Virus record (IMG/VR): IMGVR_UViG_2703718812_000024
Strand: one strand, 5' to 3'
Length of the DNA: 4,645 nucleotides
Source: a virus
Taxonomy: Duplodnaviria; Heunggongvirae; Uroviricota; Caudoviricetes
Part shown: one piece after another, positions 1-3,900 of the stretch
Layout of the letters: the number at the start of each line of letters is the position of its first letter
Position numbering within the stretch: position 1 is the stretch's first letter
Program-made: the position numbers and the translations under genes
Notes under the pieces: generated by a model
The model's database searches: none
What the model was told of the DNA's origin: nothing
What the model saw: only the letters and a program-made list of their open reading frames with translations

Positions 1-15
1 CATCCCGGGCCACCA
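1..15 (+). other. Possible 3' terminus of a tRNA gene or integration-site core (window begins ...CCCGGGCCACCA)
   Basis: The first 15 nt end in a GC-rich acceptor-stem-like run followed by CCA, immediately upstream of a P4-type integrase gene, which is the usual tRNA-attL-int layout. Too little sequence is present to name the tRNA; I could not match it to a specific E. coli tRNA from memory. Confidence 0.25.
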
Positions 16-22
16 AATCGAT

Positions 23-51
23 ACAAAGTAAAGACAAGTTACGGAAAGTTA
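23..51. repeat. Three AAGT(A/T)A-containing motifs phased about 10 bp apart (acaAAGTAa / gacAAGTTa / ggaAAGTTa)
   Basis: AAGT recurs at 26-29, 36-39 and 46-49 with one helical turn spacing between the putative tRNA end and int. This is consistent with phased protein-binding sites (Int arm-type or IHF-like) in an att arm. Pattern only. Confidence 0.3.
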
Positions 52-134
52 AACAAAGAAAACCCGCACCAGACAAGGAACGCAGTTTTTTTATTGTTCA
101 GTTTGGGTCAGTTTGATAGCGTATAAGCAAGATT

Positions 135-190
135 AAAAAGGCATACAAAAAGGCATACGCATGAAAAAAACACAGATTTGCATATGCCTT
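135..190. promoter_or_regulatory. Perfect tandem 12-bp direct repeat AAAAAGGCATAC x2 (135-146, 147-158) plus an inverted copy TATGCCTT (183-190), 25-80 bp upstream of the int start
   Basis: Exact repeats seen directly in the sequence. Their position just upstream of int suggests an operator or Int/regulator binding-site cluster overlapping the int promoter. Confidence 0.4.
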
Positions 191-215
191 TAACACGCTT
201 ATTGGAGTTTAACCG

Positions 216-2519: not shown

Positions 2520-2723
2520 ATGAACATCACAGAAAAGAAAATCCTTACAAAACGAGAAGTCGCAAATCTTCTTCGCCTTAGTACAACAAGCATTGACACA
2601 ATGGTTAAGGCTGGTGAGTTTATTCCTGGCTTTAAGCGTGGATTGCGTCGCGTTGGCTGGTTTGAGGATGAGGTGAAATCATGGCTTGAGAAGAAAGTAG
2701 AGGAGCGTTATCAGCAGGAATAA
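2520..2723 (+). CDS. alpA: AlpA-family phage regulatory protein (small HTH DNA-binding regulator, Xis/Vis-like)
   Basis: 67-aa ORF with SD AAGGA 9 nt upstream. The sequence LTKREVANLLRLSTTSIDTMVKAGEFIPGFKRGLRRVGWFEDEVKSWL fits the AlpA pattern (helix-turn-helix followed by a conserved G-R-VGW-EV-W segment). Its position downstream of int is typical for P4-like elements. Confidence 0.85.
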   Translation: MNITEKKILTKREVANLLRLSTTSIDTMVKAGEFIPGFKRGLRRVGWFEDEVKSWLEKKVEERYQQE

Positions 2724-2975
2724 TAAATTTCCATGTGTGACATATAAAAGCCACCAGCGCAGAAAATAAAACGCCTCACGTTATGCAAAACGGGTTAACC
2801 ATCGTGATGCCTTGCCGCATTCAATTAACGGCAGGTAAAAAAATACCCGCAATGCAATAACACTACGGGCCATTAACGTAATATAAGGAGTTAACCGATG
2901 TGTATTGTATACAGTCGTGTGCATATTGTCACAGGCAACAGGCATCCGCGCCAAATACCCGCCAGAGAAAATCAG

Positions 2976-3005
2976 TTGATCGCCAGTATCAAAAATGGCT
3001 ATGAT
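2976..3005 (+). promoter_or_regulatory. Candidate sigma70 promoter of Icd-like module A: TTGATC (2976-2981), 18-nt spacer, TATGAT (3000-3005)
   Basis: The -10 is a 5/6 match to TATAAT and the -35 a 4/6 match to TTGACA. The same two hexamers with the same 18-nt spacing recur at 3451-3480, and both lie exactly 279 nt upstream of the respective Icd-like ATG. Confidence 0.45.
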
Positions 3006-3066
3006 TCCCGCGCACCTTATAAAACGGGTGTCGGGATTGGAACCCCGCTGGAGATAAAGGCGATAC

Positions 3067-3089
3067 AGACGCCGAACGCGTCTTTTTTT
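3067..3089 (+). terminator. Hairpin plus T7 run (terminator or attenuator-like) in the module A leader
   Basis: AGACGC (3067-3072) and GCGTCT (3078-3083) form a 6-bp stem around a CGAAC loop, followed by seven T (3083-3089). It lies about 62 nt after the candidate -10, so a short RNA of about 78 nt (roughly 3012-3089) is possible. Confidence 0.55.
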
Positions 3090-3155
3090 GTATCGGCGCA
3101 CACGCACACCTTATCAATGGTGGGCTGTATGGGGCTGACTTCGGTCAGGCTGGTT

Positions 3156-3165
3156 TCCTTTATCG
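3156..3165 (+). promoter_or_regulatory. Anti-Shine-Dalgarno element of module A (TCCTTTATCG), perfectly complementary to CGATAAAGGA at 3235-3244
   Basis: 10-nt perfect complement to the sequence overlapping the SD of the Icd-like gene. It is also complementary over 8 nt to an upstream SD-mimic GATAAAGG at 3053-3060. The orthologous element in module B covaries (see 3634-3643). Confidence 0.45.
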
Positions 3166-3254
3166 CCAGTAGTTCCAACTCCGTGCAGTCCACCGCCAGC
3201 GAGATTGGAACCTCCAGCGGTGGGTATATCCCAACGATAAAGGAGGCTGCCATC

Positions 3255-3443
3255 ATGGCTACTACCCCTGCCCTCGTACATTCTCAGACTGCCTTTATCT
3301 GGCGTTTTATCACCTTCGGCACGTCAGAACGTCAAATTATCCACGTAACCGCCTGGACGGAACGCGAAGCGCGTAACCGTTGCCCGTCCGGTTGTGTCGC
3401 TGTATTCGCTGCCCGTATTCGTCAGGGGGTGAGTCATGCTTAA
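3255..3443 (+). CDS. Icd-like small protein, copy A (62 aa; host cell division inhibitor Icd-like family of P1 / P4-like elements)
   Basis: ATG at 3255 preceded by a strong SD AGGAGG (3241-3246, 8-nt spacer). The protein MATTPALVHSQTAFIWRF...TEREAR...FAARIRQGVSHA shares WRF, TERE(A/T)R and ARIRQGV(S/R)HA motifs with copy B. It is in frame with a longer open frame from 2898; I consider the short form more likely, but this is unresolved. Confidence 0.6.
   Translation: MATTPALVHSQTAFIWRFITFGTSERQIIHVTAWTEREARNRCPSGCVAVFAARIRQGVSHA
3411..3430 (+). repeat. 20-bp exact direct repeat GCCCGTATTCGTCAGGGGGT (partner at 3868-3887) at the 3' ends of the two Icd-like genes
   Basis: Exact 20-mer in both copies, followed in each by GTCATGC, while the rest of the duplicated modules is much more diverged. 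Confidence 0.8.
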
Positions 3444-3450
3444 AAACATG

Positions 3451-3480
3451 TTGATCGCCTCTTCTTTCGGGCTGTATGAT
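3451..3480 (+). promoter_or_regulatory. Candidate sigma70 promoter of Icd-like module B: TTGATC (3451-3456), 18-nt spacer, TATGAT (3475-3480)
   Basis: Same hexamers and spacing as module A. The 9-mer TTGATCGCC is identical in both copies. It begins 8 nt after the stop of Icd-like copy A. Confidence 0.45.
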
Positions 3481-3535
3481 GCCGGAGTCGCCCACATGGC
3501 GACCGGGTTTAGCAGCCTGAATACTACAGCGGACA

Positions 3536-3565
3536 GCCGCTTACATTCCGATATGCGGTTTTTTT
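3536..3565 (+). terminator. Weak hairpin plus T7 run in the module B leader (degenerate counterpart of 3067-3089)
   Basis: GCCGC (3536-3540) pairs with GCGGT (3555-3559), with one G-U pair and a large loop, followed by seven T (3559-3565). The T-run sits at the same offset from the promoter as in module A (108 vs 107 nt). Confidence 0.3.
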
Positions 3566-3633
3566 GCGTCCGTAAACCTACCCATACCCGCATTATGGCG
3601 GGGCGTAACGGGGGAGCCTTTGCGCTCGCTGGT

Positions 3634-3643
3634 TCCTGTAGTG
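3634..3643 (+). promoter_or_regulatory. Anti-Shine-Dalgarno element of module B (TCCTGTAGTG), perfectly complementary to CACTACAGGA at 3711-3720
   Basis: 10-nt perfect complement overlapping the SD (AGGAG 3717-3721) of Icd-like copy B. It is also complementary to an upstream SD-mimic ACTACAG at 3523-3529. The sequence differs from module A, but complementarity is preserved in all three elements. Confidence 0.45.
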
Positions 3644-3729
3644 CCAGTCTGCTAACCCCGTTACGTCTCGCCACCATGTTTAGCAGCGTAGTAGCGAGAC
3701 TCCTTAATTTCACTACAGGAGCCTTTCAC

Positions 3730-3900
3730 ATGGCTGTATCCGCACGCCCTTACTTTGTCTGGCGCTTTATGCAGTGCCATGAAAAACAAACCTCACCCTT
3801 TACCGCCACGGCAGCAACAGAACGCGAAACCCGCGCACAACTTCCGCATACCCATCTGATTTTTGTCGCCCGTATTCGTCAGGGGGTACGTCATGCGTGA
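3730..3900 (+). CDS. Icd-like small protein, copy B (56 aa)
   Basis: ATG at 3730 preceded by AGGAG (3717-3721, 8-nt spacer). The protein MAVSARPYFVWRF...TERETR...FVARIRQGVRHA is paralogous to copy A. Its stop overlaps the start of the next gene (ATGCGTGA). Confidence 0.6.
   Translation: MAVSARPYFVWRFMQCHEKQTSPFTATAATERETRAQLPHTHLIFVARIRQGVRHA

Follow-up and report, generated by a model that had tools for sequence, protein, structure and literature searches.

The 4,645-nt stretch of DNA analysed here, referred to as the window, comes from IMG/VR virus record IMGVR_UViG_2703718812_000024 and makes up the leftmost 4.6 kb of a small island, with all genes on the + strand. We consider it likely that its first 215 nt, situated directly upstream of an integrase gene (int), constitute the int-proximal (P') arm of the left attachment site (attL) of an 8.35-kb P4-family satellite-like island inserted in mdtP, an outer-membrane channel (efflux) gene which the island truncates. 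To a broader scenario we give an even chance. According to it, a P4-family lineage specific for tRNA-Ile2 (ileX) would have been naturally re-targeted to mdtP by a change confined to the overlap of the attachment site on the free element (attP), while keeping its arms, a now useless CCACCA and a decaying tRNA terminator; the damage seen at its right attachment site (attR) would come from the integrase reaction itself and not from selection on tRNA fragments.

Junctions of the island and its target genes

Positions 1–9 of the window hold the 9-bp att core CATCCCGGG, a direct repeat of mdtP sequence which contains the crossover region and recurs at attR. The junctions were compared in 12 mdtP-inserted copies, where the left one reads ...CAGTTCAACTT CATCCCGGG CCACCAAATCGA... 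and the right one ...TTCAGTTCAAAGA CATCCCGGG TCTGAAATTG..., the distance from core to core being 8352 bp. When the left flank, a single CATCCCGGG and the right flank are joined, uninterrupted mdtP is obtained at 100% identity, and the empty mdtP site is present in 5416 of 5426 complete Escherichia coli genomes. In the best complete-genome matches (98%) mdtP is split, its N-terminal part ending at window position 10 and its C-terminal part lying 8.4 kb away; PGAP labels the gene 'missing C-terminus'. The truncated reading frame of mdtP extends into the island, where a TAA stop codon at 29–31 (+ strand) closes it, giving 364 codons instead of the full-length gene, and the OEP-family gene of locus L007 (8722–9816) ends at window position 31. 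All 12 copies of the window lineage, including L016 (99.98% identical to the window) as well as L013 and L015 (both 99.96%), have mdtP upstream. The identical Int was traced to public contigs, where all ten places listed, L016 among them, are in the mdtNOP locus with mdtP upstream.

The window opens with CATCCCGGGCCACCA (1–15), a CCA-terminated G+C-rich stretch which the original prediction had taken for the 3' end of a tRNA gene lying immediately upstream, expecting the last 15–25 nt of that tRNA to recur at the far end of the element. Positions 1–6 (CATCCC) are mdtP sequence and differ from CAGCAG, the ileX sequence opposite them, whereas positions 7–15 (GGGCCACCA, + strand) equal the last 9 nt of ileX, that is, the 3' strand of the acceptor stem plus ACCA. 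The 3' end of ileX (anticodon CAU) is the insertion point of L002, L003 and four further islands with ~95% identity across the window, and also of a second group with an arm ~75% identical (L005, L006 and 16 others); the empty ileX site was confirmed. In these ileX-inserted islands the sequence of attL is ...GGTTCAAGTCCAGCAGGGGCCACCA|AATCGA, and it is from position 7 onwards that they resemble the window. In L002, L003, L005 and L006 the core comes from the tRNA 3' end and attL rebuilds an intact tRNA, which is not the case in the window lineage. Given that the similarity starts at position 7 and matches the end of ileX, GGGCCACCA is the ileX end carried by the island attP to rebuild the tRNA. 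Judged from these comparisons, CCACCA belongs to the island and is, in the mdtP lineage, what remains of the ancestral tRNA target. A more distant integrase from Gilliamella (L017; 50% identical) also follows a tRNA(CAU), which argues that ileX was the ancestral target of the clade.

What had been predicted as a tRNA-like end is thus tRNA-derived in the evolutionary sense, but it adjoins no tRNA gene. That the arm abuts an intact tRNA gene just upstream, with the island ending in a repeat of the tRNA's last 15–25 nt, we regard as very improbable. The match of 7–15 to ileX and the position of the sister islands of both groups, exactly at that point, would agree with such a layout, but the matches to ileX copies start only at position 7, mdtP is the upstream gene, and no tRNA was found by ARAGORN in the window or in L016. 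The core repeat does recur at the far end, 8352 bp away, but it is a 9-bp segment of mdtP (CATCCCGGG) and not the end of a tRNA.

In all 12 mdtP copies TCCC, which is mdtP sequence, stands between the common CA and GGG at both junctions, and the target follows the element clade (mdtP clade versus ileX clades). These two observations together suggest that the attP overlap changed, and most likely the window lineage exchanged GCAG for TCCC. An attP with the re-specified overlap would carry CATCCCGGG (...AAAGACATCCCGGGCCACCAAAT), and the ileX-type attP CAGCAGGGG (...AAAGACAGCAGGGGCCACCAAAT). The mdtP site mimics the T-loop/acceptor region of ileX, with GTTCAAnnnCAnnnnGGG in common and 13 of 18 positions matching; by arithmetic, ~2 pseudo-sites matching GTTCAANNNCANNNNGGG are expected per 4.6-Mb genome. 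The integrases of the window lineage and of the ileX-type islands differ at 17 of 421 residues (96% identity). In phage lambda, changing the attP overlap alone redirects the tyrosine integrase to a site with a matching overlap, as in the site-affinity (saf) variants. Such variants, which Weisberg and colleagues are said to have described in 1983, reportedly arise after secondary-site integration and were made in the laboratory. The same overlap-only change is the mechanism we propose for the shift from ileX to mdtP, with the difference that a natural, widespread lineage is concerned here and that the proposal is drawn from its junctions.

Alternatively, the mdtP insertion might go back to one off-target integration by an unchanged, ileX-specific attP, followed by vertical inheritance or homologous recombination. 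This is rather unlikely in our view. It would accord with the limited match of mdtP to the ileX core region (13/18 positions), with the off-target integrations known for satellites (PMC10111431) and with the close relatedness of most mdtP flanks. On the other hand, the elements of L015 and L016 are 0.0% diverged and sit in mdtP alleles with flanks differing by 3.2% (left) and 2.5% (right), with single-nucleotide polymorphisms at distances of 50 bp (left) and ~66 bp (right) from the junctions, whereas L001, L014 and L007 have nearly identical flanks around elements that differ by ~3–3.7%. This incongruence between element and flank distances argues for several independent site-specific insertions and indicates that mdtP is a repeatedly used integration site. 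Moreover, TCCC in the overlap at both junctions of 12/12 copies would not be expected from mismatched overlaps, and site use follows the element clade. A target switch by exchange of the overlap is therefore the reading that we prefer. The literature searched contained no report linking mdtP to an integrase or satellite, or naming it as a target; likewise, a search of PMC10111431 and its text supplements turned up no mention of mdtP as a target. In one complete sequence, NZ_AP045179.1 (strain JNEC-KY203), two places match the attL arm, one of them in mdtP, and two related islands may co-reside there.

Whereas attL is intact in every copy, attR shows variable deletions of 0–4 nt, located directly after ...CCCGG(G) in the mdtP copies and after ...CAGCAGGG in the ileX copies. 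The corresponding junctions lie at 22450–22470 in L001, ~14346 in L004, ~17948–18225 in L007–L016, ~14340 in L002, ~22313 in L005 and ~22027 in L006. The deletions vary even among elements 0.0–0.1% diverged. The same 'damage' of displaced tRNA fragments is known from phage-inducible chromosomal islands (PICIs), including those at tRNA-Ile2 (Williams 2002; PMC10111431). Since in the present family the deletions also occur at the non-tRNA target mdtP and among such closely related elements, they point to the chemistry of integration and not to a tRNA-specific cause.

Repeats of the P' arm and their candidate ligands

All motifs listed in the original prediction are present in 1–215, within 1–3 bp of where it had placed them. 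Three AAGT(A/T)A motifs follow each other on the + strand with an exact 10-bp period, AAGT being at 26–29, 36–39 and 46–49 (23–51 had been given for the group). The run of seven T residues is at 86–92 (+ strand), not 85–91, and the 8-bp direct repeat TCAGTTTG-GG-TCAGTTTG was placed correctly at 98–105 and 108–115 (+ strand; 10-bp period). The perfect tandem, for which 135–190 had been given together with its inverted partner, consists of AAAAAGGCATAC twice at 135–146 and 147–158 (+ strand), with a 12-bp period and starting 130 bp after the core centre. Its inverted copy (TGCATATGCCTTT) occupies 179–191 on the − strand, where it follows the doubled site at a distance of 21 bp and ends 25 bp short of the int start codon; over these 13 nt it is 92% complementary, and the 9-nt core is 100% complementary. 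Upstream of the arm repeats, positions 10–21 (CCACCAAATCGA, + strand) are a candidate core-type half-site on the island side, conserved as CCACCAAAT(C/T)GA in all relatives. The AAATCG within it is roughly an inverted match to the CAGTT of the attR half-site TTCAGTTCAAAGACA, and in L005 the symmetry CAATT...AATTG is exact.

In order to obtain chance expectations, the 21-kb locus L016 was shuffled 100 times. The pattern AAGT-N6-AAGT-N6-AAGT occurs once in this locus against 0.00 expected, TCAGTTTG four times against 0.75 (0/100 shuffles reach four), and AAGGCATA five times against 0.70 (0/100 shuffles reach five). All five AAGGCATA matches fall in the two att arms: the opposite arm of L016 contains the same doubled motif in the same orientation at 18052–18075, 62 bp left of the attR core. 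The motifs of 1–215 are also kept in L005 and L006, the surroundings of which are only ~75% identical. There, the doubled arm sites read AGGCATAC and AGGCATAT, the inverted motif GTATGCCTTAAAC, the repeat corresponding to TCAGTTTG appears as CCAGTTTTGGCCAGTTTG, and the positions of the phased AAGT motifs are taken by CGGTTA, CAGATA and CAGTTA. The density of motifs pointed out in the original prediction is therefore real and non-random, as both the shuffle controls and the conservation show. That the repeats arose by chance in A-rich intergenic DNA, or represent replication-origin iterons, has in our estimate a negligible probability. Short repeats are frequent in A/T-rich DNA like that of this region, but chance is rejected by the shuffles, the motifs are conserved across diverged relatives and mirrored in the other att arm, and a separate iteron-like GTGAAA cluster is found elsewhere in the island (L001 21765–21830). 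Iterons were accordingly rejected as a reading of 1–215, its motifs mirroring those of the other arm.

The N-terminal domain of Int most likely uses the doubled AAAAAGGCATAC, its inverted copy and the identical pair of the opposite arm as arm-type sites. This is suggested by their presence on both arms, by their fixed geometry, by the co-variation of the motif with Int and by the arm-binding domain of Int. The layout is that of phage P4, the record of which (NC_001609) annotates 12-bp 'attP arm sequence repeats': on the int side they form a tandem (ATTGGGGGCATA, ATTGGGGGCATC) and, across the int ATG, an inverted copy, and the other arm holds another tandem pair. Measured from the core centre, the doubled motif starts at 90 bp in the upstream arm and at 130 bp in the int-side arm of the present island, and at 86 and 123 bp, respectively, in P4, where the centre of the core is assumed by analogy to lie 10 nt 5' of the CCA end. 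For helper-embedded PICIs (HE-PICIs), values of 81 ± 2 bp (upstream) and 132 ± 2 bp (downstream) have been given (PMC10111431). An attL arm upstream of int with candidate arm-type and accessory sites, as had been predicted, is thus in keeping with the layout of the annotated P4 attP. Co-variation is seen in the Gilliamella locus L017, the only informative one among the three loci retrieved in a profile scan of genome contigs with the Int alignment. In L017 the same layout is built from another motif, TTTAGTTATACG twice plus three inverted copies, with all five TAGTTATA matches at 9936–10001; a 10-bp-phased ACCTCA pair stands at the same relative place as the TCAGTTTG repeat of the window. A different motif in the same layout, next to an Int of 50% identity, indicates that the arm motif changes together with Int.

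The doubled motif could instead serve as operators for the Vis/AlpA-like protein encoded in the window, for the 298-aa protein encoded directly downstream of int or for another regulator. We deem this improbable, if less so than an adjoining tRNA gene. It is in favour of operators that PMC10111431 leaves open whether the Int arm domains, AlpA or another protein binds the analogous doubled motif of HE-PICIs. In addition, the AlpA-like protein diverges between lineages like Int does (73% versus 72% identity), so that co-variation does not discriminate between the two, and the position of the 298-aa open reading frame (ORF) is conserved as far as Gilliamella. However, an arm-binding domain in Int and copies that have one orientation on both arms and stand at fixed distances from the crossover make up the classic geometry of arm sites. 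The P4 record annotates the equivalent repeats as attP arm repeats, and P4 Int is reported to bind near its own transcription start (PMC2951348). Binding by Int thus remains our preferred reading of the doubled motif.

The three AAGT motifs and the two TCAGTTTG copies are most likely sites at which the arm is bent, for which a Vis/AlpA-like factor ranks first as a ligand and Int, binding weakly as to core-like sites, second. Sites of recombination directionality factors (RDFs) are typically direct repeats one helical turn apart (PMC7498355), and the arm combines at least two predicted sites of this kind with an RDF gene candidate on the same island. The phased repeats have a (C/A)AGTT core in common with the attR half-site TCAGTTCAA, which the TCAGTTTG repeat also resembles. 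In a working model, the recombination complex would be assembled by tetramers of Int that connect the core with the doubled sites of the two arms, while the phased sites and their factor would bend the arm.

Predicted control of int and the hairpin upstream of it

The int gene is preceded by a Shine-Dalgarno sequence, GGAG at 204–207 (+ strand), 8 nt 5' of the GTG start, which was read from the sequence and the ORF list. A candidate −10 hexamer, TATAAG, is found at 122–127 (+ strand) and is of low confidence, there being no good −35; the TCAGTTTG repeat lies at the −35 position relative to it. The surrounding sequence GTATAAGC(A/C)AGATT is common to the window and to the ~75%-identical arms of L005 and L006. 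The promoter arrangement of P4, in which, by our own reading of its record, the −10 is inside the doubled repeat, could not be transferred to the island, CATACA being a poor −10. With the sites of the P' arm placed 3' of the likely int promoter and 5' of the int start, bound Int would repress its own gene (negative autoregulation) and, probably jointly with the Vis-like factor, hold int expression down. In the prophage KplE1, an int promoter overlapping attL brings about negative autoregulation by Int and the RDF (IntS/TorI; PMC2951348). The same regulation of int by Int and Vis has been reported for P4, credited to Piazzolla et al. 2006 in PMC2951348.

RNA folding revealed a hairpin which, together with the T7 run (86–92), spans 60–92 on the + strand. 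Its folding energy is −6.2 kcal/mol (z −1.7) in the window, −15.5 kcal/mol (z −3.8) in L002 and −17.2 kcal/mol (z −3.4) in L006. The hairpin is intact in the ileX-inserted islands (compared at L002 6050–6090 and L006 14050–14092), whereas point changes have weakened it in most copies inserted in mdtP. The segment looks like a decayed intrinsic terminator, the intact hairpin and T6 run of the ileX relatives being placed to end the ileX transcript. The weakening fits relaxed selection where no tRNA transcript is left to terminate, and it could let mdtNOP transcription read into int. An Rfam scan of 1–260 returned nothing meaningful at E up to 10.

Several points weigh against the interpretation developed so far. 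As regards regulation, a scan of 1–400 for consensus sigma-70 promoters gave 0 sites, TATAAG (122–127) has no convincing −35, and no site for integration host factor within one mismatch of WATCAANNNNTTR occurs in 1–215. The identity of the protein on doubled motifs of this type, left open in PMC10111431, belongs here as well. As regards the target, the placement in mdtP depends on positions 1–6 and on near-identical copies, the window itself starting at position 1. The re-specified attP overlap is deduced from junctions only, and an exact-pattern search for the free attP junction (CAGTTCAAAGACA-N3-14-CCACCAAATCGA) gave 0 matches in viral and metagenome contig collections. Finally, terminator decay in the mdtP copies is seen in few, related sequences.

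The island among related elements

The adjoining int (216–1481, + strand) encodes a P4-family tyrosine integrase of 421 aa with a GTG start. Its Pfam domains are Arm-DNA-bind_3, which is the N-terminal arm-DNA-binding domain, Phage_int_M and Phage_integrase; the protein matches NCBIfam NF007246 at 525 bits and is 34% identical to P4 Int over 396 aa (E = 1e-77). A 67-aa helix-turn-helix protein encoded at 2520–2723 (+ strand; Pfam Phage_AlpA and HTH_17) is 32% identical (E = 3e-13) to P4 Vis (ORF88, 'excisionase and transcriptional regulator') and is a candidate RDF for the attL arm. Together with a replication module (RepA-type helicase and single-stranded DNA-binding protein, SSB) and P4-type RNA immunity, int and this regulator give the element the features of P4-like satellites and PICIs, and we class it as a P4-family satellite-like island. 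None of the capsid-redirection genes sid, psu and delta is annotated in it.

With P4 the island thus shares the Int family and a Vis homologue. Co-oriented doubled 12-bp repeats with a GGCATA core are found at similar spacing on both arms of the two elements, an inverted copy stands next to the int start, a T-run follows ~65–75 nt after the CCA, and the core derives from the 3' end of a tRNA gene. The differences concern the target, which is leuX in P4 and ileX in the present family, with mdtP, and no gene restoration, in the window lineage; the repeat, ATTGGGGGCATA in P4 and AAAAAGGCATAC here; the inverted copy, which overlaps the ATG in P4 and ends 25 bp before the GTG here; and sid, psu and delta, without annotated counterparts in the island.

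The attL/intS region of KplE1 (argW) is similar in that int reads away from the core, attL overlaps the int promoter, and arm-type (IntS) and phased RDF (TorI) sites are combined in one arm, for which there is an experimentally supported model of autoregulation (PMC2951348). It differs in integrase clade and motifs, and binding and regulation were demonstrated in KplE1, whereas for the present arm they are predicted. The PICIs and HE-PICIs of Enterobacteriaceae have a co-oriented doubled 12-bp motif at fixed distances from the attP centre (PMC10111431), an integration module of int and AlpA/HTH_17 with some PICIs at tRNA-Ile2 (PMC10111431; Williams 2002, NAR 30:866), variable small attR deletions from a fixed site after GGG (PMC10111431; Williams 2002) and, occasionally, insertions in protein-coding genes for which no replacement sequence is supplied (PMC10111431). 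The HE-PICI motif, TGTATTGC, is different and was stated to be unique to HE-PICIs (PMC10111431), and in the present island the 'damage' occurs at a target that is not a tRNA gene.

The region therefore appears to belong to the well-known P4-type att/int control regions, with the modest twist of a probable natural switch of target, mdtP having taken the place of ileX while a relic of the tRNA was kept. The general picture of site-specific recombination is unchanged. For annotation, a CCA-terminated, G+C-rich end beside an integrase gene should not be taken to prove a tRNA target; in the present case this end is carried by the island. The two lineages form a natural pair with the same arms and near-identical integrases (96%), the target being either ileX or mdtP. 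Such a pair allows tests of the overlap as the sequence that sets target choice in the P4 family, of the doubled 12-bp motifs as arm sites, and of whether attR 'damage' in satellites is mechanistic or adaptive.

Directly 3' of int is the 298-aa ORF (1486–2382, + strand), for which no Pfam or NCBIfam family was found and which shows no similarity to P4 cII, the occupant of the same position in P4. In the Gilliamella locus a 267-aa ORF (L017 11437–12240) follows the 50%-identical int, and the N-termini of the two proteins are alike (LLGCEVSDLIHW here, RLGCDVDDLIHF in Gilliamella), which suggests that this ORF is a conserved, uncharacterised partner of this integrase clade. Further downstream, an 'ash family' ORF (2898–3443) and an 'Icd-like' ORF (3436–3900) cover a region with matches to C4 antisense RNA and isrK at 3012–3088, 3113–3200 and 3591–3678 and a weaker match at 3487–3565. 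Two C4 antisense RNAs are full-length (77.6 and 73.5 bits) and isrK scores 61.5 bits, with a second, sub-threshold copy. The C4 RNAs and isrK make up a duplicated P4-type RNA immunity module, and parts of the ash and Icd-like protein calls may really be RNA genes.

The island further encodes DUF4222 and, beyond the window, the RepA-type helicase and SSB mentioned above, PerC, Mor and tRNA-like genes. The latter form two to three tandem units at its right end (L016 17813–17894; L001 21900–22210, outside the window), which PGAP annotates as tRNA-OTHER and tRNA-Tyr; one of them reaches 35 bits with the Rfam tRNA model, and ARAGORN calls none. The iteron-like GTGAAA-containing repeats of L001, also outside the window, lie 3' of the Mor-like gene and read GTGAAAGAAG GTGAAAGAAG GTGATTTTTGTGAAAT...; this cluster may be an origin or a regulatory array.

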